From: a virus
Taxonomy: Duplodnaviria; Heunggongvirae; Uroviricota; Caudoviricetes
IMG/VR virus record: IMGVR_UViG_3300046047_000272
DNA: 64,000 bases
Reading direction: 5' to 3' (one strand)
Of the stretch, positions 3,551 through 51,331 are shown one piece after another. The position numbers and the translations under genes were made by a program. The notes under the pieces were generated by a model that worked only from the letters and a program-made list of their open reading frames with translations, did not search any database and had not been told where the DNA came from. The first letter of the stretch is position 1. Each line of letters starts with the position of its first letter.

Positions 3551-3643
3551 CAGAACCGCCGGTCTATCGGACGCGGAGCCAGTACTAGTATAATTACTGA
3601 TCCAGACCATGGCGTCCGAGGACGGCGGCTTAGCATCACGTCT
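3551..3643 (+). repeat. Repeat module A copy A1 (solitary hairpin module)
   Basis: CAGAACCGCCGGTCTATCGGACGC...TATAATTACTGATCC...GCGTCCGAGGACGGCGGCTTAGCATCACGTCT. Confidence 0.95.
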
Positions 3644-3695
3644 GTCATATACAGTGGTTTTCTGCACTATATGATCAAATATGCTCATTCACGCA

Positions 3696-4283
3696 TCATA
3701 CGACGTAGACGGAGCTATCTTTTGTTGGCAGTATTTGGTACATCACACCGGACAGCTCGAAGGCTATCGTTATCTTCGTGTCATCATCAATCGTTCCAGT
3801 GACGGAGAGATAGGTACGACGTTGCTGCTGCTCATAGGCCATGGTCACGACATGGAATCCAACATCATCAAGGGCACGAGAGACATTATCGATGAAACGG
3901 TGGAGCACTACGAGCATGACGTGACGATGATCATCAATGATGGCATGCGTCGGGTCCTCCATGGTGCCATGGTCACCGATATATGACATGTTGGTTATCA
4001 CATCAAGTCGGGTATTGGGCGCATCAATGGTACAGTCCTCAATAGTGAAGCTAATAGTGAATTGATGCTGATCGTCCTGGCTACGAGTGGCGATCATTCT
4101 CGGTCTGAGAAGACATGCTGGCGCATCATCGTCATTAGGTCGTTGCACGTAGTTCGTGACCAGAGGATAGATGTCCTCCCATATATGCTCCATGAAATCG
4201 GTGTTTATGGTGTTGATATACCTCTTAGTTGATTGAAGACGCTCAGCGATGCTGGACGTTAGTATACGCTGATTAGATGACAT
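3696..4283 (-). CDS. Hypothetical protein lying between repeats A1 and A2
   Basis: Long ORF; GGAG-like RBS before MSSNQ. Confidence 0.6.
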   Translation of the reverse strand: MSSNQRILTSSIAERLQSTKRYINTINTDFMEHIWEDIYPLVTNYVQRPNDDDAPACLLRPRMIATRSQDDQHQFTISFTIEDCTIDAPNTRLDVITNMSYIGDHGTMEDPTHAIIDDHRHVMLVVLHRFIDNVSRALDDVGFHVVTMAYEQQQRRTYLSVTGTIDDDTKITIAFELSGVMYQILPTKDSSVYVV

Positions 4284-4446
4284 GTACACTCCTATGATCA
4301 AAAGAATCGATGTGTAGGAGTATCATGGTACCGCAAAAATGGATCCAATGGCAATGACCATGACGACGTGGCGTTAGTAGCTTATGATTAATGATGGTCT
4401 CATGAGCGAGTGTCCATAAGTGATGGTCTTATGGTGATAAGAGGTA

Positions 4447-4996
4447 CAGAACCGCCGGTCTAACGGATGCAGACCCAGTACCCGTATAATTTACTGATCC
4501 TCGTGGCCGCGTCCGAGGACGGCGGCTTAGAATCATATCTAATGGTACCTTCATAGTATGACCTATATGTGGTCATCATGATGACCAAGGAGAGCCATCA
4601 TGGAATCAAGGCATCAGCGACGATTAGTGTCGTTAATGGGCGCGTTGACGGGGCAGTACGTGATGGCCTTAGGCGGGTATCATGATGCGCTCCTGCAGAG
4701 CGTATTCCTAGGATATGCTTCCTCGTGCACACGCTCTATCGTTGCAGTGCCGCGGTTCCTGAAAATCACTCCTGTACACTAGAACACGATGTTCTTCACT
4801 GGCTCTACGAAGCTAATAAGCGCTTTGGTCATTGCCATTCCATGGCTCTCACGTGATTTGCGTCCTCGTCGTTGAGGACAGCCGTGTAGACGGCAATGAA
4901 CCACGCAGAACCGCCTGTCTAACGGCCTGGACTATCGGGCTAGCATAATTCTCAATGATCCTCATGGATTCGTCCGAGGATGGCGGTTGTATCGTT
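4447..4996 (+). repeat. A2 (4447-4540) - variable - B1 (from 4689) - A3 (from 4906)
   Basis: Direct alignment of the copies by eye; B starts GCTCCTGCAGAGCGTATTCCTAGGATATGCTTCCTC. Confidence 0.95.
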
Positions 4997-5017
4997 AACT
5001 GATACTCAGATCATTGA

Positions 5018-5302
5018 TTATTTAAATTTGAGCAATCGTGTTGCGACCATGATCATGGCGGAGATGCTCATGGCTGTCAGTATCAGCATCAGATACATCG
5101 TTCCTGCAACATGTAGAATTTGTAGTGCTCTGATGCTGAATCCAAACATCATGACGCTGACGCCAATTAGCCCAATGGCCGTCAAGGAGACATTATATGG
5201 GAAGACGTCATCTTCGAGAGCCTTAGACCGGCGTATGCCGTCAATCGTGACGATCGCCACCGTCAGGGTCATAACGATGATGCATTCAAACAGTATATTC
5301 AC
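5018..5302 (-). CDS. Small membrane protein (about 3 TM) between repeat units
   Basis: Hydrophobic 94-aa ORF; GGAGGA RBS upstream. Confidence 0.65.
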   Translation of the reverse strand: MNILFECIIVMTLTVAIVTIDGIRRSKALEDDVFPYNVSLTAIGLIGVSVMMFGFSIRALQILHVAGTMYLMLILTAMSISAMIMVATRLLKFK

Positions 5303-5478
5303 GATTCCTCCAGTGTCCTGTGACTAATGAATAAATGATAGAATCAATAGTATACCGTAGGTGGGACATGGACCGGGTTATCGAGTGAGCGTGTTGTTTG
5401 GGTGGCATTCGGCTGGCCTTGGCGGTGGAACGAGGAATAGCTTAGGGCTGTGACGGCATTCAGCGGGGCGTGTGATGC

Positions 5479-6281
5479 GCTCCTGCAGAGCGTATTCCTA
5501 GGATATGCTTCCTCATGGACACGGTTTATCGTTGCGATTCCGCGGTTCTTGAACATCACCTCTGTACACTAAAACATGATGTATTCCACTAGTTCTACGG
5601 AGCCATTGAGTCTGCCGATCATTGCAGCTTCGTGGTTCTCACGTGATCTGAGGATGTAATGCCTAGGAATGACCATGAGATCATGGTGAGACGTACAGAA
5701 CCGCCGGTCTATCGGACGTAGACCTAGTACTAGTATAATTACTGATCCTCGTGGCCGCGTCCGAGGAAGGCGGCATAGCATCACGTCTAGTGGTTGGTCC
5801 ATATTATGGCTAGCTGGGTGTCATGCATCATGCTCGGAGCAGGACTAGCGATCGGCCAGTGCTAGCTCATCATTGAGGTCCATTGCAGTGGTGGGTGTCC
5901 GCATGGTCCAGTGGGTGCGGCTGGGTGTTGATCACTGAGGATAGGACAAGCCAGCGCTGCGTGGTTGGGTGCTCCTGCAGAGCGTATTCCTAGGATATGC
6001 TTCCTCATGGACACGATCTATCGTTGCAGTGCCGCGGTTCCTAAAAATCACTCTTGCACACTAGAATATGATGCTCTCTTACTGGTTCTACGGAGCCGGT
6101 GATCCTGTTGATCATTGCAGCTTCGCGGTTCTCACGTGATCTGAGGATGTGTTGCTGAGGAGTGATGGTAAGACCGTGTTGAGAGTCTCAGAACCGCCGG
6201 TCCATCGGACTCGAACCCTGTATCCGAGTAATTACTGACCATCTTGGTCGCGTCCGAGGAATCCGGCTTAGCATCACGTCT
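5479..6281 (+). repeat. B2-A4 (5479-5788) - variable - B3-A5 (5971-6281); period 492 bp
   Basis: Two tandem full units. Confidence 0.95.
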
Positions 6282-6294
6282 ACAGCCATGATGT

Positions 6295-6774
6295 CTACAG
6301 TAAAGCTTCACGTACCCAGGTCATCATAGATGATGCGTCATCGTTGGCATGGAAGGACTCGTCTTGATGATCAGGTTGTTCGTCAGCCGCGTCACTAAGA
6401 TCATAGACGGTCACACTGCCGTCATGCTCCACGTCAAACTCAATATCAATACTGTCAAATTCCACTATGAGGCTACCATCATCTCTTGGTGCTAGGAGGA
6501 TGATTGGCTCCTCGGATAGGTGATGGGGATAGGTTGTAAAGAGGTTCAGAATAGCCTCGATGATGGATTGCGTTTGCCTTATAGTCGCCCTAGACGCTTG
6601 CAGGCCGCGCTCATCTATCCAGCCGTCCTCGAGATTCGCTATTACTCTGAGTTGTTGACGCAATGCCAGTGTCTGTGGATTCATCTTCCATGGACACGGT
6701 GAAACTGGCTCTAAGAGTAATGATCCACTAGCTACGTCAGCATACCGGTTCCTGTGTTCATGCTGCATGGTCAT
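6295..6774 (-). CDS. Hypothetical protein (LEDGW motif)
   Basis: 159-aa ORF; ATG overlaps the TGA of the upstream NADAR frame. Confidence 0.6.
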   Translation of the reverse strand: MTMQHEHRNRYADVASGSLLLEPVSPCPWKMNPQTLALRQQLRVIANLEDGWIDERGLQASRATIRQTQSIIEAILNLFTTYPHHLSEEPIILLAPRDDGSLIVEFDSIDIEFDVEHDGSVTVYDLSDAADEQPDHQDESFHANDDASSMMTWVREALL

Positions 6775-7378
6775 ACCGTCCCTTCATCGATGTCTTCCTT
6801 ATGGTTGATCGTATCCGACTCTACGAGGAGATCGTCCCTGAGCCGCATGAGCGTGAATCCTAGGAGGTTCATGCCCCTCCATTGGAGGGGATCCATCCAT
6901 CGAGTATCGATGTCCCCTTGACGTGTGCGTTTGCCAAGTGGACACCCCATACTCGATCAAATGGTGACGCCTCTACAAGAACAGCGTCATGCGTATCCTG
7001 GAGATATGATCGGAGGACTGGGTCCTGCGTGTACTTGGCGTGGACGGCCAGGTACATCTTCTCCTCTCTGACGCTCCCCCAAGCGTCATCGTCGTAATGC
7101 ATGACCGCTCGACCTAATCGTTTGTAGTCAGATGGTTGCAATCCTGGCTCTAGGATGGCGTTCGCGGTCTGATGGTCATTGAAGAACATGGCCTTCTGAT
7201 ACATGAAGTACTGTTCAGATCAGGTAAAATGATGCTGATCGACCGTGAATGATGTCTGATGGACGTTGCTGAATGTCTGCTCTACTGGTGAGTCATTGTC
7301 ATCTCCCCAGAAACCGATGTACGTATGATGATGACCAGCGGCTAATGAGGCGGTCAACCACGATGTATCGTATCGCAT
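6771..7378 (-). pseudogene. NADAR (YbiA/DUF1768) family protein interrupted by an in-frame TGA (7220-7222) and a frameshift near 6914-6917
   Basis: GFWG...FT*SEQYFMYQKAMFFND, KRLGRAV, LVEASPFDRVWG; C-terminal WRGMNLLGFTLMRLR is in another frame. Confidence 0.85.
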
Positions 7379-7420
7379 GATGTCCTTTCATGACGCTATG
7401 ATGGATTGATGTAGTGGGTA

Positions 7421-7753
7421 TCAGGCGTAGGCGTCGATGTCTGCTGGCATGGTTATCGTGTGATCCTCTGGTCGGGGATCGGTGAAGCAGAATCGTACGC
7501 CACCGGTTGCATCAAGGAGCTTCGTAATATCCTCCTGACTGACGTAATCAGCGATATGATTGACCGTCACGGCGGTCTCCAGGGTGTCGCCATCCTCGCC
7601 ATTATCCCGCCATGCATACCGATGCCAACCGGATGGTAACCGGTCTGCTCGTATTCGAGCTGGACCCTCATAGGCGAGGATGTCCTGGAGATCGTGTCCA
7701 TGATCGTCCTGAATGACGATGCGGACAGGTTGCATGGTGATCGTGTTGCTCAT
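7421..7753 (-). CDS. LPD28-like (large polyvalent protein-associated domain) protein
   Basis: RIRADRLPSGWHRYAWRD...TLETAVTVNH pattern. Confidence 0.55.
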   Translation of the reverse strand: MSNTITMQPVRIVIQDDHGHDLQDILAYEGPARIRADRLPSGWHRYAWRDNGEDGDTLETAVTVNHIADYVSQEDITKLLDATGGVRFCFTDPRPEDHTITMPADIDAYA

Positions 7754-7800
7754 GCTGCGTCCTTCGATACTTGACCGATACGATTGATGCATCTAGTGTA

Positions 7801-8270: not shown

Positions 8271-8337
8271 GATATCATCCTTTGTAGAAATTGTTTAATA
8301 ACAACTATGATGACATCGTACCGCTCTGACGATTATT

Positions 8338-8379
8338 GCGCCAGCATGAACACAAATGCGTGTAGGTTCATGCTGGCGC
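8338..8379. terminator. 14-bp stem hairpin downstream of the 8399 gene
   Basis: GCGCCAGCATGAAC / GTTCATGCTGGCGC. Confidence 0.7.
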
Positions 8380-8398
8380 CATGACTGGATGGTTTGAT

Positions 8399-8839
8399 CT
8401 AGTATCGATCGTGTCCGATGATGCGAATGCAGTGGTTCTCATCCTCAGGTGTGGTCACGATGTACAGATCTCCGAGTTGTTCCTGAAGAGCGGCAATCAC
8501 GGCGTCACGCTGAGCGTCATCACGGAAGCTGTAGCTGATGTACACATCATCCCCGGCAATCTCCGATGGGATGATCGTATCGTTCTTCGTCACTGAACCA
8601 GATCCGTTGGAGGCGTTCTTGAAGAGGATGTATGAGTAGTTCTCATCCTTCGCGTGGATCTTACCCTCCTGGTCAATGGTGATGCTATCCTTGTTCCAGT
8701 AGCGCTTCGGGAAATCCTCAGGGCCGTAGCAGCATGAGCACATGTTCGGCTGATAGGTGTAATGAGCAAAGTCAAGACCGGTTGCCTCACGGATAGCCCT
8801 CAGATTGAGATCCCCGTAAGTACGTGTTTGATTGGCCAT
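8399..8839 (-). CDS. Hypothetical protein with CSCC motif
   Basis: AAGGAG RBS before MANQ; own promoter. Confidence 0.7.
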   Translation of the reverse strand: MANQTRTYGDLNLRAIREATGLDFAHYTYQPNMCSCCYGPEDFPKRYWNKDSITIDQEGKIHAKDENYSYILFKNASNGSGSVTKNDTIIPSEIAGDDVYISYSFRDDAQRDAVIAALQEQLGDLYIVTTPEDENHCIRIIGHDRY

Positions 8840-8906
8840 GATGACTCCTTCACTAGTTGTTTGCTTGATACTCTGATTATACGTGGACGAATGATTAGAC
8901 ACGCCG
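8840..8906 (-). promoter_or_regulatory. Repeated promoter/5'UTR cassette (also ~10720-10784, ~11209-11275, ~40045-40109)
   Basis: Minus strand CGGCGTGTC-N16-TATAATCAGAGTATCAAGCAAAC...GGAG...ATG in four near-identical copies. Confidence 0.85.
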
Positions 8907-8946
8907 TGAGAACGATAATTACTGAGGTGGTGTCCTCGTGAGGAAA

Positions 8947-10407: not shown

Positions 10408-10719
10408 TTAATCCTCTGATGCTTCGATATAGAGGATGCCTGCATCATTGTCATGAGCATCATGGTGATCCTCTTGATGCTTTCGCCTTTGAGCGCGCCA
10501 GTACTCTTCTGAGTAGGCGTGGTGTTCAGCATTCGTGGCGATGGCCGCGTAATTGGCTGACACCGGAAGTACTCGAATCTCGTCATGCGTACCCTCAGCG
10601 CCAAAAGGACTTAGATAATGCTCACCAGTGTCATCATCCTGGACAATAGAGGCTAGTCGCAGGTCACCTGATAGCCTCTGAATTTGTTGTAATTTCTTAA
10701 TAAGCTCACTGATCCTCAT
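10408..10719 (-). CDS. Hypothetical protein (paralogue of 10914-11208)
   Basis: MRISELIKKL; repeated promoter cassette upstream. Confidence 0.7.
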   Translation of the reverse strand: MRISELIKKLQQIQRLSGDLRLASIVQDDDTGEHYLSPFGAEGTHDEIRVLPVSANYAAIATNAEHHAYSEEYWRAQRRKHQEDHHDAHDNDAGILYIEASED

Positions 10720-10913
10720 GATGACTCCTACTCGTTGTTTGCTTGATACTCTGATTATACGTGGATGGAGGATTAGACACGCCGGTTGATAGAACTATAC
10801 GAGCAAGTATGATATGGCATCATAGCTCATGGTTATGCCATGAGCTTAACTCGGTATATCAGTCGCAGATGACGCTGGGTGGATAAACGATGGATGACCG
10901 GCGACCAGTTATA

Positions 10914-11208
10914 CTACTCCTCGTCCTCCTCGTCATTCTTAATATCCTCACGGACATAATCACCGTGCTTGGCCGCCGTCACATCGTAGGCCTCAAAGTC
11001 ATCCTTCGAGCCAATCACCGCGTAATCCTTACCATCGTACACATTCCTCAAATAGCGAACGTCACCCGCTTCATCAGTATTCAACTCACCCAAGTCCTTG
11101 ATGAAGCCATCCCCATACTCGTGATCCTCATTGATAGACCCAACGACCACGTTGCCGTATTTTTTCTTCGATGATGCGCAGCTTCTCGATAACGTCGTTG
11201 ATCCTCAT
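10914..11208 (-). CDS. Acidic hypothetical protein, frameshift in the A6 run at 11160-11165
   Basis: MRINDVIEKLRIIEEK joins YGNVVVGSINED if one A is removed; N-terminus matches the 10719 gene. Confidence 0.65.
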
Positions 11209-11509
11209 GATGACTCCCTCACTCGTTGTTTGCTTGATACTCTGATTATACGTGGATGGAGGATTCGACACGCCGTCTAATCATGGTATATCCGACGCTT
11301 AGTGTCATACCCATGTTCATAATGCTCATCGGCTATTCTATATACGAGCAACGGCTATTCTTCATGAAGGTGTGATCGAGGTCATCACTAATCATTGATT
11401 CGTATATACATTTCACGATCATCAGCGTTCGTATTACGATATGAGTCTAATAAGCGTCGTAGCCGGCATGATGGTTCATGCCGGCTACGACGATGTGATA
11501 TTGACGAGA

Positions 11510-16754: not shown

Positions 16755-16900
16755 TCAAAAATGTTATCCTTTGTAACAACAAAACAAAACATAACATTCG
16801 AGGCGCGTGGTAGGATTCCTCCTACCACCGACCGGACCTACAAGCCGGCCGCCGTGTGACGTGCCAGCCATGCACCGCACGAAGCGCGGTGACGGTTCTC
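16755..16900 (-). ncRNA. Putative omega/reRNA scaffold at the tnpB 3' end (limits approximate)
   Basis: Hairpins GTGGTAGGA/TCCTACCAC (16807-16828) and AATGTTAT/ATAACATT (16760-16798); position typical of TnpB guide scaffolds. Confidence 0.5.
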
Positions 16901-18298
16901 CAGCACGTCATAGAGTGTTTTACGATGGGGCGCGCCCCGGCCCCTGGGTAGAGCATCGGAGGAACGTCCTCCGATGACGCGAGCGGCATTCACATCAGCG
17001 TTAAGCGCGCGTCCGCAACACGAGCACTTGAAGTGCGACTGATCCCTTCGATTCCTCTTATCAACATAACCGCACTTCGAGCACTGCTGGGACGTGTAGG
17101 CCGCATTCACCTTGGTGATGATGATTCCACGCTCCTCGCGCAGCGCCTGAAGCTTCTGGTTCAGGAACCCGCGACCCGACCTTGACAGGATACGGTTCAT
17201 CCTCTTGCTAAGACCGCCACCACGGAAGTCAAGATCCTCAACAATGATCTCCCTCGCGTCGGCTGCCAGAATGTTCAGCATGCGCCCAATCTCGTTCTCC
17301 ATGAGACTACGAGACCGGGACACTAACGAATCATAGCAGGAATCTCCCCTGAGCCTTAAACCCTTACTACTGAGCTCCTTGACACGATTCATGAGCATAG
17401 TGTCTAATCGTTTCAACTCAGCAAGGGCTGGCCTCCCGAGCATCCTCCCGTCAGGGAGCGTGAACAGGCTCACGAGACCCCAGTCGAATGCGATCACGTC
17501 ACCATCCTCGCGGAGCGGAGCGCATGGCTTCTCTATTACGGGTGACACGCTGAGCGTGTCACCCTTTAACGAGAGTTGGATATGATTCAGAAGTCTTCCA
17601 CCCCGTCGTCTCCTAGCGAAGAACCTGTTATCCTTTACTGGTATGAGTACGGGGTGACCCCTGTCAAGCGTGCTCGTCCGAAGCCACCATGAGAAGCCAG
17701 TCCCCCTGGATTCCTCGAGGACAGCGCTCTTCGCGTCTAGTTTCATCGTGATCTCATGCCCGAGGACTGGTCGGTGATTCACTCTGCGAGCGTGCTTCAC
17801 AATGCGACGCATGAGCCAGAGATGCTCACTACTCACGTGGATGAGCGTTGTCCTACCGGCTCTTCGTTCAGCTGTGGTAGGGTGGATAAGCGTGCCGTCA
17901 CTAGTGACCATCCAGTCGAGCTCGTAGGTCTTCGCGTGCCATGCCATATGATAATTCAGCCTGTAGAGGGTGTCCCTCGTGTACGGGTCGAGGGTGCTGA
18001 GCGTAATGATCCGCCGCACGGTACCCTGTAGGGAGCGGAGCCAGGAGGCGTAGGATTCCCTGGCCTGCGCGTAACAGGACTGGGTCTGCCGAGCGGAGAG
18101 GTGGATTATGGCCTTCGAGTTAGTGTACTTGCTGGGTGGCTTGGCGTCCTGGATGAGACGCTGATCCATGCTGGCTACTAGGATGGTGAGGCCGTGCTGG
18201 TACTCGTGGATTAGGTCTCGTATCCTGTTGATCTTACCCGCGTTAGCGGGTGATTTGAGCCTGTAGGAGCGAGTGTAGACTGATGGCTTACTGGTCAT
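16838..18298 (-). CDS. tnpB: RNA-guided endonuclease TnpB, 486 aa
   Basis: RuvC-I AFDWG, RuvC-II IVEDLDF, Zn finger YTSQQCSKCG...CSCCG, RuvC-III NADVNAA. Confidence 0.92.
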   Translation of the reverse strand: MTSKPSVYTRSYRLKSPANAGKINRIRDLIHEYQHGLTILVASMDQRLIQDAKPPSKYTNSKAIIHLSARQTQSCYAQARESYASWLRSLQGTVRRIITLSTLDPYTRDTLYRLNYHMAWHAKTYELDWMVTSDGTLIHPTTAERRAGRTTLIHVSSEHLWLMRRIVKHARRVNHRPVLGHEITMKLDAKSAVLEESRGTGFSWWLRTSTLDRGHPVLIPVKDNRFFARRRRGGRLLNHIQLSLKGDTLSVSPVIEKPCAPLREDGDVIAFDWGLVSLFTLPDGRMLGRPALAELKRLDTMLMNRVKELSSKGLRLRGDSCYDSLVSRSRSLMENEIGRMLNILAADAREIIVEDLDFRGGGLSKRMNRILSRSGRGFLNQKLQALREERGIIITKVNAAYTSQQCSKCGYVDKRNRRDQSHFKCSCCGRALNADVNAARVIGGRSSDALPRGRGAPHRKTLYDVLENRHRASCGAWLARHTAAGL

Positions 18299-19134: not shown

Positions 19135-19489
19135 TTGAACCTCCTATGATCAGTTAATGTTGCTATAGACGATGAATCGTATCCACTACCTGTGATAGTA
19201 TGATGATACTATCATAATACGATGTTCCACACAATTGTCTACATGGTCATCGTGAGCTATTCTAGATACGATCATAGGCACTGTCATTGCGGTGCCTATG
19301 ATCGTAGAAGGAGCATCGAATCATTAGTTCATGGTTCCAGATAGATAATCCTCGACTGGGTCTAATACCTCCTCATGATACTTTTGGTAATCATTAAATC
19401 CAAGATAGATGGTCAATCGTTCAGGAGTAGTTCCAACATTGACAACCTATCATATGAAACGCACGTTCTAGTCTGCTCTTAGAAGGACG

Positions 19490-19620
19490 AAATCTAGTTA
19501 GGCTCAGAACATGAGTAAAGATTCATGTTCTGAGCCTATTCTGACTGGTACTGGGTATAAAAGCTCTCAGATGATACGTTATACTAGACGAGCTTAGAAT
19601 CGGGATTAGATGCGAGATCT
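19490..19620 (+). repeat. 131-bp repeat D copy 1 (MITE/REP-like)
   Basis: Aligns with 47066-47196 and 62791-62921; 40-nt hairpin at 19499-19538. Confidence 0.93.
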
Positions 19621-19656
19621 AGTGTCCTCATGAGCGCCCCTCTGTACGCATAAGAT

Positions 19657-23859: not shown

Positions 23860-24408
23860 CTATGCTACGGCGTGTCTAGTAGCCGCTAGCATGACGAGGA
23901 AGCTATAAGGATGACCCATACTAGCTTCACGTGATGCTACGACGAGCACGGGCATGGCCTCATGGATGGGTACCTGTTGCTCTACTGATAACACCGTCAT
24001 GGCTAGTATCGCTCCTAACCGTTTATTTCCATCAATCAGTACATGCATTTGATTCGCTGATCGTAGGAGCATAATGGCTAGTAATGACGATGGGATAGCC
24101 TCTCGCTGATCAGTCTGCATCGTCATCATAGCTGACATCACAGCAGACGAGAAGATGCGGTCAATGACATCATGCGTTGACGAGCCGTCCCTGGCTGCGA
24201 TGGTCATATTCACTACGGACAGACTGTCCATCACATCGTCTACCGTGGCTGGTCTTATCTGACGGTGATCAATGCTGGCAACGAGTGATGTATACAGGTC
24301 GTCTAATCGTTGATTAGCTTGCAATCCGGGATCATCATCGTCATCTGATGCTGATAGAAGTCCAGTCCAATCACGCATAGCGCTAACATCACGTTCGTCC
24401 ATCATCAC
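23860..24408 (-). CDS. Fic/Doc-like protein
   Basis: HVLIDGNKRLG variant of HxFxDGNKRxG. Confidence 0.7.
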   Translation of the reverse strand: MMMDERDVSAMRDWTGLLSASDDDDDPGLQANQRLDDLYTSLVASIDHRQIRPATVDDVMDSLSVVNMTIAARDGSSTHDVIDRIFSSAVMSAMMTMQTDQREAIPSSLLAIMLLRSANQMHVLIDGNKRLGAILAMTVLSVEQQVPIHEAMPVLVVASREASMGHPYSFLVMLAATRHAVA

Positions 24409-29024: not shown

Positions 29025-29833
29025 CTAATGCCGCCAGTGCAGAGCATCCATGAGATCAATGTCTTCTCCTGGGGTAGCACCATCGACGAGTATCCAATCA
29101 TAATGATAATGATCATCAATGGTGAGGTAGAGCACGTCGCCATTCGTGAAGACGAAGGTCAATCCTTCCGGGATGATCGTTGGCTCGCGCTCATTGACCA
29201 TCTTATCCTCGGCCTCATTCAAGAGCCTATCCAGCGTCGTGGTGTAATGCATCCAACCGACCCTGACGACATCTTGCTCTTGATGGCCATTCTTAGTGAT
29301 GACTACTCGTAGGTACTCGTCTAATGGAATGACTCGACCATAGATCTTATCAGCAGTTTTCATCACAGGCCTCTCTCAATTGCACTACACGTTTTTTGTT
29401 GATATAAGCATCATATCATACACATGAATGAGACACGCCGAATCACCATGATCATCATTGATCAGGGTAATGGTTATCCTCATGACGCCCAGTTCAGAAC
29501 GTCCATGAGATCAATGTCCTTTCCTGTGCCCGCCCCCTTGACGACCATCCATTCAGGATGCTCGTTATCATACTGATCAGTAGTATGCGTTAGGAACAAT
29601 ACGTCCCCATTTGTGAAGACGAAGGTCAATCCTTCTGGTATGAGCATTGGTTCGTGCTCATTGACCATCTTATCCTTAGCCTCCTTCATGAGCCTATCCA
29701 GAGTCGTGGTGTAATGATTCCAACCGACTCTAATGACATCCTTCTCCTGGTAGTCATTATCGGAGATAATGGACCGCAGATACTCGTCCAATGGTAGCAC
29801 ATGACCGCCTATTTCGTATCCATACTTATCCAT
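29025..29833 (-). other. Tandem paralogous CDS pair (29025-29366, 29480-29833) duplicated together with their promoters
   Basis: Shared PLDEYLR...RVGW.HYTTTLDRL...IPEGLTFVFTNGDVL; ~47-bp upstream repeat at ~29428 and ~29892. Confidence 0.85.
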
Positions 29834-30129: not shown

Positions 30130-30254
30130 AAGAATGACTATACGTGGCCGCGGTCATCATGTCAACACGGCGTGTCGTCATACGCAGATCATGATAGATC
30201 AGACAATAGCCCCATATGATGTGGTGGATGGCCCTCAGCCACCTCTCAGACGCA

Positions 30255-31336
30255 CAGAACCGCCGGTCTATCGGATGTAGAGCTAGTACTAGTATAATTA
30301 CTGATCCTCGTGGCTGCGTCCGAGGACGGCGGCATAGAATCATTATTAGAGGAATGGTTACATCTTTCATCATCTCATCAATCGCTTGTCATGAGATCAG
30401 GGACGGTCTATTATTGTGTGGAGGATATGACGATAGTCCTATGAGTGAGGATTAATGACGATGGGTCTAGTGATGATGACTAGCGTATGTCCATGTCCAG
30501 GGGTGATGTGAGCAGGAGCTTGCTGTGTGGTTGCTCCTGCTGGATGGATGGACGCTCCTGCAAAGCGTATTCCTAGGATATGCTTCCTCTTGGACACGGT
30601 TTATCGTTGCAGTGCCGCGGTTCCTGAAAATCACTTCTGCACGCTAAAACATGATGTTCTCCACTAGTTCTACGGGGCCAATGGACTCGCTGATCATTGC
30701 CATTCCATGCCTCTCACGTAATCTGTGTTCTCGTCACTGAGGATGACCATATGATCGTGTTGAGAGGCACAGAACCGCCGGTCTATAGGATGCAGAGCCA
30801 GTACTAGTATAAAATTACTGATCCTCGTAGCAGCGTCCTAGGACGGCGGCTTAGCATCACGTCTATGGGTAGGTTCATATAATGATCCGCTTGGATTGAT
30901 TCATCATACTAGGAATAGGAGCGGGATTGCCTATCATTATCATTGAGGTGCTGCTTAGGGTATCATTGAGGTGCTGCTTAGGGTATCATTGAGGGTCAGT
31001 GACGGAGTGGGCCCTCGTGGCTGGGCGCTCCTGCAGAGCGTATTCCTAGGATATGCTTCCTCGTGCACACGCTCTATCGTTGCGATGCCGCGGTTCCTGA
31101 AAATCGCTTCTGCACTCTAGAACATGATGTTATCCACTAGTTCTAAGGAGCCATTGACCCTGATAATTGTTGCAGCTTCGTGGTTCTAGCATGATCTGCA
31201 TCCTCGTCGCTGAGGAATGACGGTGAGATCGTGTTGAGACGCTCAGAACCGCCGGTCTAACAGCCGCAGACCCCGTATCCGTGTAATTATTGATCCTAGC
31301 AACTCGATCCGAGGACGGCGGCTTAGCGTCACGTCT
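30255..31336 (+). repeat. A6 - variable - B4-A7 (30554-30864) - variable - B5-A8 (31027-31336)
   Basis: Alignment with the 4.4-6.3 kb copies. Confidence 0.95.
30938..30994 (+). repeat. 23-bp tandem repeat x2.5 inside a variable segment
   Basis: TATCATTGAGGTGCTGCTTAGGG repeated. Confidence 0.9.
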
Positions 31337-31478
31337 GTCAATAGCGTGAGTACATATCGTAGAGATAGCTTCACTGAGCGGATATGATGCTTATATGGTA
31401 TTATGATCATTGTGAGGAATGCGTAATCGTACGACCATGATGTCTTGACTGAGCTGAGAACAATGAAGGAGCGTTGAG

Positions 31479-33477: not shown

Positions 33478-34538
33478 TTAATGCATATTAGACACGATCT
33501 GGTCGATGTGATAATTGATCCTCGACAAGGTTGACCGATCCGAGCTGATCGTCATATGATCCTGATTCAACGTGACGAGTTGATCGTGCATATGGACAAG
33601 ATGTCCAAGCATATCTCTCATACTTTTGATCACAATTGTTGACTTAGTATCGAGAGCATGATCGTGGGCATTCATAAGATCGTGTTGAAGGATCTTAATA
33701 TCGTCCTTTGTGGCATCATTCAATCCAATATTATCGATGAGTTGAAGATTGTCGTGAATTAGGTCAAGGCATTGATGATAGATGTCATCACTATGATTCC
33801 CATGATCAGCGAGTCTAGTAATGACCTCGTCTTTCCTAAGATCGTATTCTGGATTCAATGATGATAATCTCTTACGAGCAATGATAAAGAAACGATTCAC
33901 GATAATGTCGATTTGGTCATGCGATAATGCTATTGGTGACCATATGGTCAGATCCTGTAGATCGTGCTGGCGTGAATGATACTCGTATCCAAAATCATGT
34001 AGATCTGTCTCTCTAATATGAAGATGATCCGAGGTGTCCTGAGCATTCATCGTTGAGATAATAACGGTCTGTTCCTGATGCTGATCATTAAGAACGGTCT
34101 GCGTGGTGATATAGTCCTGAACGATGGTGTCATCCCTGGCGATATTATCCATTATGGTAATTGATGTCATCATGAGTATCCCAGGAAGCAGGAAGATGAA
34201 AGACGGTAATGCTGTTAGTCCAGCAAATATTGGTATGAATGCGCCTAATAGGGAGACGTCATAGATATAACCACGCCTACAGCAGGTATCAGGGAATCAC
34301 CCCAGCGTCCATATGACCGTATGATCTTCAATAAATATCGGCCTTTTCTATGAGCCATCATCCAGGTCATGAATCGTGACGTTCTAGAAGAAATCTTAGA
34401 TTTCATCCAACGCCAGATCGTATTGGTCTTATTGTTCTTACTATGGATGATTTTCTTCCGAGAATCCTCAGATATAGACGAATACGCTATTCTTTGTTGT
34501 CCAGTCAACACTTGGTGTAATTGTTGTAATGCGGACAT
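33478..34538 (-). CDS. Membrane protein paralogue of 34565-35659, split by a frameshift in a C run near 34250
   Basis: Shared YSSISE/DESRK, PSFI, TVIISTM, TIWSP, RLSSL motifs across both frames. Confidence 0.7.
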
Positions 34539-38952: not shown

Positions 38953-38967
38953 CATGACCGCTTAATC

Positions 38968-39039: not shown

Positions 39040-39069
39040 ATGATCAACGTCATCTACACCGTCATTCTC

Positions 39070-39631
39070 TGATGCTATACCAAGGATCAATAATTACTCG
39101 GACACAGGGTTCGAGTCCGTTAGACCGGCGGTTCTGAGCGTCTCAGTATGATCTCACCGTCATTCCTCAGCAACACATCCTCAGATCACATGAGAACCAG
39201 GGAATGGCAATGATTAGCAGGGTCAATGGCTCTGTAGAACCAGTGAAGAACATCATGCTCTAGTGTGCAGGAGTGATTTTCAGGAACCGCGGCACTGCAA
39301 CGATAAACCGTGTCCACGAGGAAGCATATCCTAGGAATACGCTCTGCTGGAGCGCCCAGCCATCAGGCAGGAACGATCCCCCAGCACACTCCTGATCACA
39401 TCACCAATGATCATGCACCAGCGATCATGCATGACGCCCATCACCATGCACCACTGCCGTCATGATCACTTAGATAGAGACCCATATGATTGATGGATGT
39501 ACGATTATGACAGTAGACGCAAATATGCGTCCATCTCTAGATATGATGCTAAGCCGCCGTCCTCGGACGCTGCTACGAGGATCAGTAATTATACGGATAC
39601 TGGGTCTGCGTCCGATAGACCGGCGGTTCTG
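39070..39631 (-). repeat. Inverted locus: A10 (39631-39539) - variable - B6 (from 39353) - A9 (3' arm deleted)
   Basis: Reverse complement of the A and B modules. Confidence 0.93.
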
Positions 39632-39717: not shown

Positions 39718-40044
39718 TCACTCAGCATTGATGAGACGTTCATAGGATTGCGGTGCGTAGATAACCTCGGCTGCCGAGTATAGCGTGTGAATCAGACCGC
39801 GTTGATGATCAAGCATCTCAGCGTATCGAGTGATGTCGGCCTTCATAGCGTCTGAATCTGGCTGGTCGCTAATGAACGATCTGACTGCGGGGAGCCATTG
39901 CTGAGCAGGGAGCTCATGTTGATCGAGTAGGTCATTGAAGTCAGTTTCGATATCGCCATCGTAGACATCATGGGCTGTGAGGTGATGCTCCTCGATATAT
40001 GCCTTCATGAGCTCGTCGACGTGGTCTGATATGATGTTTGCCAT
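39718..40044 (-). CDS. Hypothetical protein
   Basis: GAGGAG RBS and repeated promoter cassette. Confidence 0.65.
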   Translation of the reverse strand: MANIISDHVDELMKAYIEEHHLTAHDVYDGDIETDFNDLLDQHELPAQQWLPAVRSFISDQPDSDAMKADITRYAEMLDHQRGLIHTLYSAAEVIYAPQSYERLINAE

Positions 40045-40155
40045 GATATGCTCCTCAACAGGTTTGCTTGATACTCTGATTATACGTGGCTTGTCGATAA
40101 GACATGCCGGTTACGAGCAATATGCGATAGGAGGAGCATCATTATTAATGACGGC

Positions 40156-41100
40156 TCATGCATCCATGATGGTCTTCTGATACGCTGGGCATCCCTCGAT
40201 GAAGGACATCATGTATGGGCTGAGACCAGATCTTTTGAGTCTGACAAGCTCATCGTTCATGAGATCTGCTGGCATGCCCCACATGGCCTCAGCAATAGCT
40301 CCACTCATAGCGCATTGCGTGTCAGCGTCTCCTCCCAGTCTGATGGTGTTCCTAAGTGTGGACACGTAATCAACACTGGTGGGATCGAGGAATGCACAGA
40401 TGGCTTCGGGGACTGATCCCTGGCATGAGACGTCGAATTCGTATCCAGTGTTGATGATGTCGTCAACAGTGCGATCAAGATCGTACTGGTAGAGGCCTTC
40501 CTCTGGGTGGAAGTTCATGTATTTCTCCACGATCTGCTTGACGCTCTTCTTATCATGGGTGGTTCTGGCGGCGAAGACGGCCATAGCGATGGCCACGGCG
40601 CCCCTGATGCCCTCTGGGTGATCGTGCGTGCAGGCCGCTGAGGTGACGGCATTCATGAAGATATCCTTCTCGTTGTCATACAGCCATCCGATGGGGCTGA
40701 CTCTCATAGCTGATCCATTACCATATGATCCGTATGGCTCAAGTCCAGATGGTGGCGTTGATGTCTCAGCGTGATCCAGTGATAACGTCTCCGAGCCATC
40801 TAAATTGCCCTTGACTGACCATGCGAGGAACCGTGATCCGTATCCTGAGTCCGGCCAGGTGAAAACGGCTCTGGCGAATAATGACGATAACGCATCAGCG
40901 AAGACGTCATGATCATGCGTGGGATCGAAGAGATCCCGATGGGCGAATGCGTGACCAACCATGCAGGTCAGTACGCTATCATCAGTGTAATCATACTCAC
41001 TCTTCCTGAGATCGTAACTTGGGTCATTCGCGTATGCCGGTGCGCCAGTATACTCCGATGGTGCGCCAGCGACATCTCCAAAACATGCTCCTAGGGTCAT
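40156..41100 (-). CDS. ADP-ribosylglycohydrolase (DraG/ARH family)
   Basis: GDVAG, YTDDS, GNGSAMRVSP, THDHPEG, GGDADT. Confidence 0.92.
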   Translation of the reverse strand: MTLGACFGDVAGAPSEYTGAPAYANDPSYDLRKSEYDYTDDSVLTCMVGHAFAHRDLFDPTHDHDVFADALSSLFARAVFTWPDSGYGSRFLAWSVKGNLDGSETLSLDHAETSTPPSGLEPYGSYGNGSAMRVSPIGWLYDNEKDIFMNAVTSAACTHDHPEGIRGAVAIAMAVFAARTTHDKKSVKQIVEKYMNFHPEEGLYQYDLDRTVDDIINTGYEFDVSCQGSVPEAICAFLDPTSVDYVSTLRNTIRLGGDADTQCAMSGAIAEAMWGMPADLMNDELVRLKRSGLSPYMMSFIEGCPAYQKTIMDA

Positions 41101-41722: not shown

Positions 41723-42442
41723 ATGAGCACCATCGCATTTAGGAACCGAGTCAAGGAGCGCCCATGGGTTGACGACCCTACTGTTGACGATCGTGAGGAC
41801 GATCCTTACGCGCTGATCATTATCGTCAAGGAGCTCAAAGATCCATCTACTGGACAGGAGATCGTACCAGAGGATCATTACGTTCGTGCGGCCAGCGATG
41901 CTCTAGTGGCCCTACTCGGTGAGTATGGTGATGATCATATTGTGACGAAGAGGCTTGACGCTTGGTTAGACACCCGCATCCGGAAGCTAGTGAAGAGGGC
42001 TAAGCCATCACGATTCGACGCTATCAAGAACGATCATACGCTATCCTTAGTGACGCGATCATGTCATGACGCTGAGGTCATGGTTCTAGCACCGTTGCGT
42101 CGTAGTGAGCAACCATTGTCTGTACGCAAGCTTCAAGTATCCGGTTTCACGACACGAACGAGAGCCTATGACGTCACGGCATCAGGCCCACATCTACATG
42201 TCATCGTGAATGGTGCCCTCAACATGACCACGGGGAAGATCATCGCTCAGTATGGGCATGCCGTGCAATTAGCGTTCCAGAGCCTATCCGACGATGATTA
42301 CGCTACTTGGATGGCGCATGGCTTTGCCACTGACTACGATCTTGCTGATCCATCACCTGATGATCCTATCATCGTACACGATGCTGGATACACTGAGATC
42401 GCGTCAAATTCATTCACGGCGTCTGCAACGATGATCGCCTAA
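41723..42442 (+). CDS. Peptidyl-tRNA hydrolase Pth2-like protein (actinobacterial two-domain type)
   Basis: NMTTGKIIAQYGHAVQLA and VHDAGYTEIA. Confidence 0.8.
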   Translation: MSTIAFRNRVKERPWVDDPTVDDREDDPYALIIIVKELKDPSTGQEIVPEDHYVRAASDALVALLGEYGDDHIVTKRLDAWLDTRIRKLVKRAKPSRFDAIKNDHTLSLVTRSCHDAEVMVLAPLRRSEQPLSVRKLQVSGFTTRTRAYDVTASGPHLHVIVNGALNMTTGKIIAQYGHAVQLAFQSLSDDDYATWMAHGFATDYDLADPSPDDPIIVHDAGYTEIASNSFTASATMIA

Positions 42443-47032: not shown

Positions 47033-47065
47033 TCATGGTGTCTGCATGATGGTCAAGACTGGATG

Positions 47066-47196
47066 AGATCTAGTTAGGCTCAGAACACGAGTAAAGATTC
47101 ATGTTCTGAGCCTATTCTGACTGGCGCTGAGCATAAAAGCCCTCAGATGATACGTTATACTAGACGAGACTAGAATCAGGATTAGACGCGAGATCT
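47066..47196 (+). repeat. 131-bp repeat D copy 2
   Basis: Bounded by AGATCT at both ends; hairpin at 47075-47114. Confidence 0.93.
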
Positions 47197-47215
47197 GTCG
47201 TACTGATTCAGGCCG

Positions 47216-47488
47216 TTACAATCTTATGCTACTGACGATAGTCGCCATGACGATACATCCACCGGCAAACCAGAATCCTGCGAGTATCCAGGGGAGATTG
47301 ACGACATGCATGATCGAGGAGAAGAATACGATAGCGAGGACGGCTGCGAGGACACCACAAAAGAGGAAGAGGCCGGCTATCCGTTGTTCGTGTCCGCGGA
47401 ACGCTCTGATGGATCCACGGATCATGACGCCAGCGCTTCCGACAAGCAGTGAACCAATGATGACTAGCATGGCTACGACGATGGACAT
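47216..47488 (-). CDS. Small membrane protein
   Basis: 3 TM segments; GAGGAG RBS; motif promoter. Confidence 0.65.
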   Translation of the reverse strand: MSIVVAMLVIIGSLLVGSAGVMIRGSIRAFRGHEQRIAGLFLFCGVLAAVLAIVFFSSIMHVVNLPWILAGFWFAGGCIVMATIVSSIRL

Positions 47489-47644
47489 GATGACTCCTCA
47501 CGTTGATTGATAGATTCATCATATCATGATATGATGGAGGACACGCGGGTCAAACGCTTATTGTGCGGGTTACATCGATATGATGATGACTCTAATCATG
47601 ATACGATGATAGACAGTACAAATCATGACTGAGGAGGTCAGAAC

Positions 47645-49030: not shown

Positions 49031-49154
49031 ATTCGTCGGCTAGTATGATGAGTAATGGCGTCAATCTTTACGATTTGACGCCATCAGCTAATGACGATGT
49101 GGACACATTCCTATGCTCGTGATGGCACACGATCATGGTCGCCTATTCGTGTAT

Positions 49155-50129
49155 TCACGCCCAGCAATGATCCTCAAGACAACGACGCAGGGCCTTCCGC
49201 GTCATGTTCGGAGCCATGGCCATATGATACGAGCCATCACCAGTATACGACACTAGTCCAAATGTTCTTGGCATAGTGTTCACGATGCTTGTTGGGAAGT
49301 CCTTATCACCCTCAACGTCCTGGGGTCTCTGAGCACCGATGTAAACGGTGTTGACTGGCCCAAGCTGTCTGACCATATCGTTTCGATACGTGATATCCGA
49401 TGATATGATCATGACATAAACATGGGCGAGTTTTGCTATTCGTTCGGACAATAGGCAACGAACCGTATCATACACGCCTCCATCCTCGAAGAATGATGCA
49501 CGCCCCATGTCAAGGACGAGCAGGATACTGGGAACATGATCAAGCACATCTGATTCTTGTCCTAGAGCATGTTTTGCTTCATAATCAGCAATGCGTAACT
49601 GGGCCTCTTCATGTATTCTCAGAACATCACGCTCAAGATTATCAGACAACACGGCGTTCCTTGGCCTAGCGTCCCTGATGAATGACCACTCCGACGTTAA
49701 GCCATCGTCCTCGGCGTCGTACACGCATATAGACCACTCGTCAGGACACGCGCTGAGTGACGATACCACCCATTGAGCATAGTTTGTCTTACCCATGCCG
49801 TGCTCACCCTTGACGAGAATAAACGATGCATTGCGATGACGATCAAGATGAACATGCTGAATGTCCCCATAAACATCGTATCCTAATGGAATAGCCGTTC
49901 TACAATGATCACCACGATATGACTCGGCTTGTCTTGGCCCGCCTTTCTGTAACTTGCGCAATTCAACGCTACGTTTAAGATCGAAGTCCCGAACGCCCTC
50001 GCGTCCAGACATTAATAACCTCATCTCCGATATGAGTTGGAGATCCTCGTCACTATAATTCGGCTTGTCATCGTGAGGACGCAGCCTATACTGACTGTCG
50101 AGATAGTCTTTTGTTGATGAAAACAACAT
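49155..50129 (-). CDS. FtsK/SpoIIIE-like P-loop protein (divergent)
   Basis: IPLG, Walker A GEHGMGKT, ILLVLD. Confidence 0.55.
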   Translation of the reverse strand: MLFSSTKDYLDSQYRLRPHDDKPNYSDEDLQLISEMRLLMSGREGVRDFDLKRSVELRKLQKGGPRQAESYRGDHCRTAIPLGYDVYGDIQHVHLDRHRNASFILVKGEHGMGKTNYAQWVVSSLSACPDEWSICVYDAEDDGLTSEWSFIRDARPRNAVLSDNLERDVLRIHEEAQLRIADYEAKHALGQESDVLDHVPSILLVLDMGRASFFEDGGVYDTVRCLLSERIAKLAHVYVMIISSDITYRNDMVRQLGPVNTVYIGAQRPQDVEGDKDFPTSIVNTMPRTFGLVSYTGDGSYHMAMAPNMTRKALRRCLEDHCWA

Positions 50130-50151
50130 GATATAGTCCTTCTTTGCTACG

Positions 50152-50694
50152 ATGCATCAGTCTTCCCAATGCATCATCTACCCTCGTGCAATACGAGTAA
50201 CGCGAGGCCTTATCGAGAAGATCCGAATCCTTCCGAAGGCCACGATGGATAAGATCAAAGCTGCTTCGAATATCCATTTCATCTATGGTGATGATATTGA
50301 TGCGCAGATCGTCATGAGATCGTTGATAAAGAGCATGAGTAAGGATGATCGAGGTGTCCTAGTGACTGATCATGAGGCCTTCATATGGCCGGGATACGAT
50401 ACGCGTATATGTTCAATCGTCGGAACAGAGAAGGTCTACTCTCATAAGATCGACGTCATTGCTAAGCGTATGCGTGTTGACGCCATCTTCGTTGATGGTG
50501 TCTGGGATGAGGAGACCCTCCGGGCTCTCGTAGCAGCGTCATGCATGGGTATCCAAGTCTACGCGATCATACCGGCCTCCTCAAGAGATCAGAGCACCAG
50601 ACTGCTGCATATGATCTATCATGACGTCATTCGATACGATCATCGTGAATGGCTGTCTATCAATGACGTCATACCCGAGGGACAGGTTTCCTGA
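50152..50694 (+). CDS. Degenerate PilT/VirB11-like ATPase fragment
   Basis: RMRVDAIFVDGVWDEET...AASCMG resembles RxDPDxIxxGExRDxET...AAxTG. Confidence 0.35.
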   Translation: MHQSSQCIIYPRAIRVTRGLIEKIRILPKATMDKIKAASNIHFIYGDDIDAQIVMRSLIKSMSKDDRGVLVTDHEAFIWPGYDTRICSIVGTEKVYSHKIDVIAKRMRVDAIFVDGVWDEETLRALVAASCMGIQVYAIIPASSRDQSTRLLHMIYHDVIRYDHREWLSINDVIPEGQVS

Positions 50695-50758
50695 GCAAGA
50701 AGGCCGCTGATATGGACAGATGAGACCACCAAGTCATGTGTCCATATCACAAGAAGAA

Positions 50759-51331
50759 CAGAACCGCCGGTCTAACGGAAGCTGAGCCAGTACTAGTATA
50801 ATTACTGATCCTCGTGGCTGCGTCCGAGGAAGGCGGCTTAGCATCACGTCTAGGAGTAGGTTCATAGTATGGCCAACTGGGTCTTATGCATCGTGATCGG
50901 AGTAATAGAAGTCAGCTGACGTGGCTTGCTCGTGTTGAGGTGGTCGGCAAGGGTTGGGTGAGTGGTGCCGCTGGGTATCTCAAGGCTGAGTGAACTAAGT
51001 GAGGGTGACCTAGGCATGGGCGCTCCTGCAGAGCGTATTCCTAGGATATGCTTCCTCGTGGACACGGTTTATCGTTGCAGTGCCGCGGTTCTCTAAGATC
51101 GGTTCTGTACACTAGAACATGATGCTTCTCACTAGTTCTACGGAGCAAACAAGCCCTCTGATCGTTGCAGCTTCGCGGGTCTCACATGATCTTAGGAGGT
51201 ATTGCTGAGGTATGACGGTGAGATCGTGTTGAGACGCTCAGAGCCGCCGGTCTAACGCACGCAGACCTAGCGCTCGTGTAAATTACTGATCCTATCCATA
51301 GTGTCCGAGTATGGCGGATTAGGATCATGTC
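50759..51331 (+). repeat. A11 (50759-50851) - variable - B7 (from 51022) - A12 (from 51239)
   Basis: Alignment with the other copies. Confidence 0.95.

Follow-up and report, generated by a model that had tools for sequence, protein, structure and literature searches.

What is a repeated, modular element doing at four separate places in a single virus-derived sequence? The question is raised by a stretch of 64,000 nucleotides (nt) from the IMG/VR virus record IMGVR_UViG_3300046047_000272 (Caudoviricetes), hereafter the window, meaning that whole stretch at its full length. The window carries copies of a quasi-palindromic module, A, and of a longer module, B, in the order A, variable spacer, B, A. 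A first-pass annotation, made from the sequence alone, had proposed that this element is a structured RNA of at least 310 nt, or else a folded single-stranded DNA site, amplified and diversified within the element and belonging to a family that it did not recognise. Our analysis bears out the feature, which is non-coding and previously undescribed. Of the new results, the most telling is a promoter-like box in A together with a split pattern of conservation on the two sides of that box. The reading that we prefer, though only tentatively, is that each unit is a non-coding transcription unit that would start inside one A and end in the next, so that two half-A sequences would clamp the ends of the RNA.

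Results

Modules A and B form arrays at four intergenic loci

Module A (about 95 nt) occurs 12 times and module B (about 220 nt) seven times, and neither occurs anywhere else in the 64 kb; self-BLAST, motif look-up and an nhmmer profile search agree on this, as does repeat finding, and the copies listed in the first-pass annotation are thereby confirmed at their positions with none to add (Table 1). Every A copy is recovered by nhmmer with E ≤ 2.4e-18, the next match in the window reaching only E = 0.067, and the B copies are recovered with E ≤ 1e-92. Each of the seven B copies abuts an A without a gap and has another A upstream, the arrangement that had been claimed for them. The resulting units of about 480 nt (A, a weakly conserved spacer, B, A) lie at four intergenic loci. 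Distances from one A to the next are 896, 459, 790, 493, 515, 474, 495 and 480 nt; six of the eight fall within 459–515, in line with the 460–515 bp that had been described as usual.

A promoter-like box and split conservation in module A

The heptamer GTATAAT occurs 16 times in the window, six times inside A. Eight of the ten occurrences outside A lie 8–70 nt upstream of the start of a same-strand open reading frame (ORF) of at least 100 aa; of the other two, one precedes a Shine-Dalgarno sequence followed by ATG and one precedes another structured repeat. As the heptamer mostly precedes genes, it behaves as a −10 box in this genome. Within A, TATAAT or TATAAA is intact in all seven well-preserved non-terminal copies (A1, A2, A4, A6, A7, A10 and A11); the box reads CATAAT in the degenerate internal copy A3 and is changed in all four array-terminal copies (A5, A8, A9 and A12). 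Judged from this distribution, GTATAAT in the non-terminal copies of A likely acts as a −10 promoter element on the B-to-A strand. A generic scan of the units for sigma-70 promoters and terminators found nothing conserved.

The window also has promoter arrangements of its own. The 9-mer GGCGTGTCT is enriched in it (34 occurrences vs 12 expected), and four near-identical promoter/leader cassettes precede different small ORFs at 8837–8907, 10715–10785, 11206–11276 and 40040–40110 (−), each in the order GGCGTGTCT, about 15 nt, GTATAAT, a conserved leader, AGGAG and ATG. A second promoter class has TG immediately before GTATAAT. The GGCGTGTCT class was considered as a promoter inside the units, and none was found there.

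Module A is an imperfect palindrome of 17–19 bp with two single-base bulges and an apical region of about 45 nt. In its stem 86.5% of cells are paired, compared with at most 46% when the partner is slid, and the long hairpin appears in the minimum-energy fold of 8 of the 12 copies. The two sides of the palindrome are unequally kept. In the four terminal copies the ascending arm matches at 21–22 of 24 positions, the same as in other copies, whereas the loop matches at 7–11 of 17 positions (13–17 in the others) and the descending arm at 13–17 of 20 (18–20 in the others); the first A of each array has both arms intact. Edge decay by itself can hardly account for such an asymmetry between left and right. 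The pattern suggests that A is composite, its ascending arm working with the B before it, its box and descending arm with the unit that follows. In the same four copies, pairing of the ascending arm reaches 15–17 of 19 positions when its partner is the descending arm of the preceding A, compared with 12–16 of 19 for its own descending arm.

A predicted transcription unit between neighbouring A copies

In the model that we propose, the start site of each RNA would lie a few bases past the box in one A, in the B-to-A direction. From there the RNA would comprise that A's descending arm, then the spacer and the conserved B core, and its 3′ end would fall in or beyond the ascending arm of the following A. 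Once paired, the two half-A sequences would form a terminal stem of 17–19 bp closing an RNA of about 450 nt; a single A would thus combine a promoter with clamps for two RNAs, at the 3′ end of the RNA before it and at the 5′ end of the RNA after it. Since A is a direct repeat, recombination from A to A could add, delete or exchange units.

In two A-to-A intervals the opposite strand carries an ORFan gene, which is a 201-aa ORF in the 800 nt after A1 (the A1–A2 interval) in one case and a 94-aa membrane-protein ORF between A3 and B2 in the other; the predicted RNAs would therefore be antisense to those genes. Around the first of these genes, the A1–A2 interval holds a box, a descending arm, a 30-nt remnant of B and an ascending arm, exactly the parts that the model requires. 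The most likely function, on this model, would be that of a regulatory or protein-binding RNA of this genome.

A more ambitious form of the proposal would make the element a new modular RNA cassette: the split hairpin A would supply the promoter and both clamps of a ~450-nt RNA with an invariant B core, the clamps would also capture antisense cargo directed against ORFans, and the cassettes would spread by A-by-A recombination without a dedicated recombinase, like an integron whose cassettes are RNA genes. Taken with all of its parts, this form is unlikely.

Table 1. Positions of the A and B modules, their spacers and the ORF lying within an array (minus-strand modules are read from the higher coordinate)
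Feature	Coordinates	Strand	Remarks
A1	3551..3645	+	solo A; GTATAAT intact at 3588-3594; about 30 nt of the B 3′ end kept upstream
A2	4447..4542	+	opens the B-containing part of locus 1; GTATAAT 4484-4490
Spacer v1	4543..4684	+	poorly conserved
B1	4685..4905	+	most diverged of all B copies
A3	4906..5000	+	internal, degenerate; box CATAAT
94-aa ORF	5018..5302	−	membrane protein; good ribosome-binding site
Spacer v2	to 5474		follows the 94-aa ORF
B2	5475..5695	+	
A4	5696..5790	+	internal; GTATAAT 5733-5739
Spacer v3	5791..5966	+	homologous to v7 and v5; contains 19-aa hydrophobic ORF 5806-5865 (+)
B3	5967..6188	+	
A5	6189..6283	+	terminal A of locus 1; box lost (GAGTAAT), loop diverged, ascending arm kept 22/24
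A6	30255..30349	+	first A of locus 2; GTATAAT 30292-30298
Spacer v4	30350..30549	+	3′ 59 nt 75% identical to v6
B4	30550..30769	+	
A7	30770..30866	+	internal; box TATAAA; stem with double C-G to A-U change
Spacer v5	30867..31022	+	
B5	31023..31243	+	
A8	31244..31338	+	terminal A of locus 2; box lost (GTGTAAT), 13/19 stem pairs left
A10	39537..39631	−	first A of locus 3; GTATAAT 39588-39594 (−)
Spacer v6	39358..39536	−	
B6	39137..39357	−	
A9	39042..39136	−	terminal A of locus 3; box lost, descending arm decayed 13/20, 12/19 stem pairs left
A11	50759..50853	+	first A of locus 4; GTATAAT 50796-50802
Spacer v7	50854..51017	+	contains 16-aa hydrophobic ORF 50869-50919 (+)
B7	51018..51238	+	
A12	51239..51334	+	terminal A of locus 4; box lost (GTGTAAAT)

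Folding, covariation and strand

The stems named in the first-pass annotation are present, with G-U pairs on the B-to-A strand, and the evidence for that strand is modest. Read in the B-to-A direction, the A stem has 29 G·T against 6 A·C cells, 11 of the 29 coming from one invariant pair; the B-A consensus fold has 78 against 24, a count that is biased because this fold was predicted on that strand; and the consensus energy is −47.7 kcal/mol on the plus strand against −41.8 on the minus strand. Of the cells in the B-A consensus fold, 90.5% are paired, and both sides change in five of its pairs; the covariation score of this fold was reached by 8 of 500 shuffles, and that of A alone by 21 of 500. 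The double change from C-G to A-U in A7, reported earlier as compensatory, is real (alignment columns 18/73) and is compensated inside A7. The terminal stem joining the 5′ and 3′ ends appears in the minimum-energy fold of all three predicted full-length RNAs.

Several observations weigh against the transcription-unit reading. The covariation is marginal and lies within the range of unstructured related sequences: with the counting tool used, unconstrained related sequences reach such values in 5–25% of trials. As a single genome supplied every sequence, the copies cannot be counted as independent. Folding energy is unexceptional on both strands, with a column-shuffle z of −1.3 (+) and −1.3 (−) for the seven copies and of −1.1 and −1.9, respectively, when the decayed copy is left out; the three predicted full-length RNAs give z values of −0.56, −0.20 and −3.44, two of which are unremarkable. 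Pairing within one A and pairing between neighbouring A copies are equal on average (16.3/19 vs 16.2/19 over all copies), and the double change in A7 becomes a mismatch in both of the flanking predicted RNAs. The terminal copies could have decayed merely from their position at the array edge. The box in A has no TG directly upstream and no GGCGTGTCT about 15 nt upstream, unlike GTATAAT elsewhere in the window. Finally, as DNA the hairpin of A folds no better on one strand than on the other, so that no strand preference as single-stranded DNA is seen. As for the structured RNA that the first-pass annotation had proposed, the stems are there and the B-to-A strand suits them better, and covariation and energy are as described above. 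The structured-RNA claim is weak, plausible but unproven.

A second repeat family in the window also folds. Its three copies (19485–19631, 47061–47207 and 62786–62932, all +) are about 135 nt long, contain a near-perfect hairpin of 16–18 bp and fold strongly on the plus strand (z −3.6 to −5.7). In the third copy the loop is flipped, its hairpin tip being the reverse complement of the tip found in copies one and two, and GTATAAT lies 37 nt upstream of this copy; the family may be another small RNA gene or a terminator.

The units lack a coding signal

No coding signal was found in the units: stops occur in all six frames, pN/pS is 0.55–1.0 and no frame stands out. The earlier statement that no ORF is conserved is thus borne out, and the decayed gene that had been named as a possible refutation leaves no trace in the six frames. 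One plus-strand frame of B is open in all seven copies to a common stop, and two of the seven lack a start codon in it. Antisense ORFs vary in length and are of low complexity, and the ORFs inside the units have no Pfam match. Read-through under another genetic code was considered and rejected; the first in-frame stop is TAG or TAA depending on the copy, and the later ones are TGA.

Two hydrophobic mini-ORFs, of 19 and 16 aa, follow directly after A4 and A11 in spacers v3 and v7. They are homologous and differ by synonymous or conservative changes, and they are disrupted in the other units. They bring to mind a toxin-antitoxin module of type I, of the LDR or Ibs kind, in which a small hydrophobic peptide would be made from each unit's highly folded mRNA with paired ends and would be held in check by a cis-antisense RNA. 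The LDR unit is about 500 bp long. Besides the two peptides, the predicted terminal stem and the 94-aa membrane-protein gene, which would lie antisense to the predicted RNA in one interval, would suit such a system. Tandem intergenic repeats of about 480 bp also have counterparts in ldr-rdl and ibs-sib, as described by Fozo et al. (2010, PMC2887945). However, the small hydrophobic ORF is intact in only two of the seven units and lies in their least conserved part, its peptides are shorter than most known toxins, no B frame has a coding signature (the best one lacking a start codon in two of seven copies), and the antisense ORFs are variable in length and of low complexity. We regard a toxin-antitoxin system as quite improbable.

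Conservation within the unit

Conservation is uneven along the unit. Between copies, columns 1–100 of the B alignment have a mean identity of 89%, the remainder of B has 69–73%, and most spacer pairs are at about the level of shuffled sequence; the likeness of the copies is thus well beyond what chance would give. Some spacers are nevertheless related: v3, v5 and v7, from loci 1, 2 and 4, share 62–68% identity over 110–147 nt, and v4 and v6, from loci 2 and 3, share 75% over 59 nt, so that the closest relatives are found at different loci and not next to each other. The spacers are thus distantly homologous across loci, and the repeat is therefore the whole unit of about 480 nt. Solo and first-in-array copies of A retain 6–30 nt of the 3′ end of B, as found by nhmmer, which is what would be expected if the arrays are phase-shifted tandem units. 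That conservation is so uneven inside one unit argues for constraint and not for recent duplication.

The 3′ half of B (alignment columns ~150–195; for example 5650–5665 vs 4863–4878) occurs in two variant blocks. A 7-nt word of one block recurs in the other as its reverse complement, giving a local hairpin there, and B5 and B6 have recombinant combinations of the blocks.

Copy number and distribution

The locus is near-complete in one bioreactor sludge metagenome run, which may be its source, and partial in four others; all five are DNA data sets, and none of the runs listed for the locus is of RNA. In the best run, the summed contig depth over the conserved part of B is 582, compared with 25.8 for single-copy flanks; this ratio of about 22 suggests roughly 20 copies in the sample, compared with seven in the window, and the family is therefore kept at high copy number. 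At loose contig ends, a minimum of four additional A junctions can be seen, with a left edge 0–7 nt before the start of A and with flanks unlike those upstream of any A in the window; they belong to other copies.

Searches in other collections returned little. In protein space, a B-frame peptide matched the window's own ORF and, apart from that, just one further copy, on a contig 491,046 nt long, and an A-frame ORF had no match. The second copy is carried by P0004, an 88-aa 'hypothetical protein' that the contig, but not the window, encodes; members of the family therefore exist beyond the window, either in this genome or in one closely related to it. The 19–26-nt and gapped patterns of A and B that were searched for were absent from viral, genome and metagenome contig collections, and protein-anchored searches with the neighbouring primase (viral and metagenome contigs) and a 567-aa ORF (viral contigs) found no relatives. 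In these searches, the family was found in this organism only, with further copies outside the window.

Such a narrow distribution is what one would see if an intergenic segment had duplicated in tandem as a selfish or neutral repeat, its similarity kept by local gene conversion and with no function of its own. The weak structure statistics and the visible decay of the B1-A3 copy point the same way. We consider this explanation unlikely, in view of the sharp change in conservation within units (89% in the 5′ part of B vs near-random spacers), the occurrence of the most similar spacers at different loci and not in neighbouring units, the asymmetric decay of terminal A copies beside first-in-array copies intact on both arms, and the high copy number of B.

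Gene setting and the possibility of a DNA-level cassette

On its downstream side the array adjoins the 3′ end of a convergent gene at three of the four loci, and at three of the four it starts 65–100 nt past a co-oriented gene. At locus 1, A5 adjoins the 3′ end of a convergent 159-aa ORF (6295–6774, −). Ahead of A6 at locus 2 lies the promoter-type motif GGCGTGTCG (30169–30177, +); A10 lies 80 nt downstream of a co-oriented 108-aa ORF with its own promoter, and A11 lies 65 nt downstream of a co-oriented 180-aa ORF.

Scans with Pfam, PADLOC and PHROGs (subset of 34) took in 87–92 ORFs of the window. Among the 92 scanned ORFs there is no recombinase, integrase (including Phage_integrase), resolvase, HUH enzyme or Y1_Tnp, and the 87–92 ORFs contain neither an RVT domain nor a PADLOC match to a reverse transcriptase, the protein expected beside a retron or the ncRNA of a defence-associated reverse transcriptase. 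A comparison of the window's ORFs found no protein family that recurs beside the arrays. With no shared partner, recombinase or reverse transcriptase among the scanned ORFs, the earlier remark that no dedicated protein gene adjoins the element holds.

This setting bears on an explanation in which the element acts as DNA, as a regulatory or recombination cassette: A would be a composite repeat of stem-loop and promoter, comparable to PeSL motifs or, loosely, to integron attC sites, recombination between A copies would shuffle the intervening DNA, B would be cargo or an accessory part of the site, and RNA would not be essential. The bulged palindrome of A, the position of the arrays between operons and the recombinant combinations of B variant blocks would all suit such a cassette. 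So would the flanking by A of two ORFan genes besides the non-coding units, the four opposite-strand ORFs that are followed within 10–95 nt by the reverse complement of A, in the order of gene cassettes, and the additional A junctions at loose contig ends. Moreover, PeSL motifs recombine into mini-circles without a dedicated recombinase, according to the report on them (PMC2839356). Against this stand the missing integrase, resolvase and HUH enzyme, the left edges of solo A copies, which vary from −6 to −30, unlike a site-specific crossover point, and, in a comparison of A by eye with the attC consensus, a match that seems confined to GTT among the core motifs. The contigs of four runs, too short to bridge the arrays, show no readable excision or array-length variants, and a DNA-level cassette leaves the 5′ 100 nt of B, the most conserved part of the unit, unexplained. 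We consider it rather unlikely that the element is a DNA cassette without need of an RNA, while noting that this explanation overlaps with the transcription-unit reading and that the two are not exclusive.

Tests against known families

Rfam 15 gives zero matches at the gathering score over the whole window, and at E ≤ 10 loci 1 and 2 give only four weak matches, of 15–20 bits compared with the 35–54 required. A blastn search with the B-A unit finds no match in phage or plasmid collections. The family is thus as unrecognised after these searches as it was at first sight. ARAGORN finds 0 tRNA or tmRNA genes in the window, and a tRNA-like cloverleaf for A was dropped on that result and because the alternative, cloverleaf-like fold is not kept across copies. 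Three other candidates were set aside: group II intron domain V for the invariant hairpin of B (too short, no bulge, no Rfam match), a hammerhead or other self-cleaving motif (no Rfam match) and a parS-like site in B, which has just an 8-bp core in common. The ends of the unit are direct repeats (A...A), and the alignments contain no terminal inverted repeats of the kind that define a classical miniature inverted-repeat transposable element.

The similar hairpins that stand in direct orientation at both ends of the unit could instead be the subterminal end hairpins of a non-autonomous relative of IS200/IS605 elements (PATE), with B as the remnant of an omega RNA scaffold overlapping a lost transposase-accessory gene. 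The one B frame that is open in all seven copies to a stop in the same place resembles the remnant of a gene end, and the window contains a TnpB/Cas12f-like ORF (16838–18298). However, that locus and its flanks share no sequence with A or B, no Y1 HUH transposase occurs among the scanned ORFs, adjacent units have a single common A and not two ends each as discrete copies would, and neither HEARO nor any other Rfam family is matched even at E ≤ 10. Hairpins of the IS200/IS605 family are also much smaller than A, which counts against this origin. Such an origin is very improbable. As to the TnpB/Cas12f-like ORF itself, it lies on the minus strand, encodes 486 aa, has a Cas12f1-like TNB domain and matches to transposase PHROGs, and is preceded by a TG-GTATAAT box of its own; a TnpA was not found next to it.

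Host and surrounding genes

A protein of the LCP family is similar to actinobacterial clusters, and an aspartase-like lyase reaches at best 46–48% identity to Bifidobacterium proteins. On account of these two similarities, the host is probably an uncultured member of the Actinomycetota, or the sequence an element living in one. The sample data point to a genome of 491 kb or more with a wealth of ORFans, and the majority of ORFs in the window have no family.

Scattered among these ORFans are genes for a NADAR protein (6869–7204, −), an ADP-ribosylglycohydrolase (40156–41100, −), a weak Fic/Doc-like protein (23860–24408, −), a PTH2-like protein (41723–42442, +) and a PolyA_pol-head protein (63391–63999, +), a gene repertoire characteristic of huge phages or large mobile elements. 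The genes from 54.8 kb onwards (lyase, DnaJ, LCP, HD) have a more chromosomal look. Tandem pairs of paralogous ORFs occur at 29025–29366/29480–29995 (−; 65% identity), just upstream of locus 2, at 33478–34173/34565–35659 (−; 36%) and at 56209–57180/57205–57717 (+; 30%).

Discussion

How much the element matters depends on whether it is transcribed. If it is untranscribed, it is one more lineage-specific intergenic repeat and of modest interest. If it is transcribed as predicted, it would represent a new family of large non-coding RNAs of about 450 nt with an unusual build, in which one hairpin serves as the 3′ end of one RNA, the promoter and the 5′ end of the next. It would then offer a handle on gene regulation or genome plasticity in ORFan-rich, poorly known genomes, as well as a test case for the spread of non-coding cassettes without a recombinase.

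Among known systems, HEARO or omega RNA, ROOL and GOLLD resemble the A/B element in being conserved non-coding sequences of at least 300 nt that are multicopy and lie in regions of mobile or hypervariable appearance; the A/B element differs from them in having no Rfam match, no significant covariation and no associated protein. The pneumococcal BOX elements (A-Bn-C) are likewise modular, intergenic and predicted to form stem-loops, whereas the A/B units are several times larger, contain a promoter-like box and form head-to-tail arrays in which neighbours share one module.

Integron arrays have a bulged imperfect palindrome of ~60–140 nt after each cassette, at a spacing of about 500 bp. Bulged palindromes, a similar spacing and arrays at several loci without an integrase, as in CALIN-like arrays, are thus common to both systems. 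The differences are that no integrase occurs among the 92 ORFs of the window, that B is tied to A in seven of seven cases and that the sequence of A is far more conserved than that of most attC sites. Compared by eye with the attC consensus (RYYYAAC/GTTRRRY), the outer ends of A have GTT and AAC only, without the purine and pyrimidine runs.

The type I toxin-antitoxin loci LDR (ldr-rdl) and SIB (ibs-sib) of E. coli consist of tandem intergenic repeats with extra copies elsewhere, as Fozo et al. (2010, PMC2887945) describe them. Like the A/B element, they have repeat units a few hundred bases long that stand in tandem and resemble each other outside as well as inside any ORF, and folded RNAs with paired ends are expected in both. 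They differ from it in that no small hydrophobic ORF is conserved across the A/B units (two of seven) and that the most conserved part of the unit has no coding signature.

The PeSL cassettes of T4-type phages flank ORFans and recombine without a recombinase, as set out by Arbiol et al. (2010, PMC2839356). They differ from the A/B element in several respects: the PeSL stem-loop precedes a full sigma-70 promoter, whereas A has a −10 box inside the apex of a longer hairpin and no −35 element was seen in it; most A/B cassettes carry the conserved non-coding B of 220 nt and not an ORF; the two ORFs flanked by A are on the opposite strand; the host looks actinobacterial; and there is no sequence similarity. 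The two nevertheless have in common a short, repeated, intergenic stem-loop with a promoter box, and direct repeats that flank ORFan genes in variable regions. The combination of stem-loop and promoter box in one intergenic repeat, which is typical of PeSL, is found in A in silico, and in its presumed way of working A appears closest to these cassettes.

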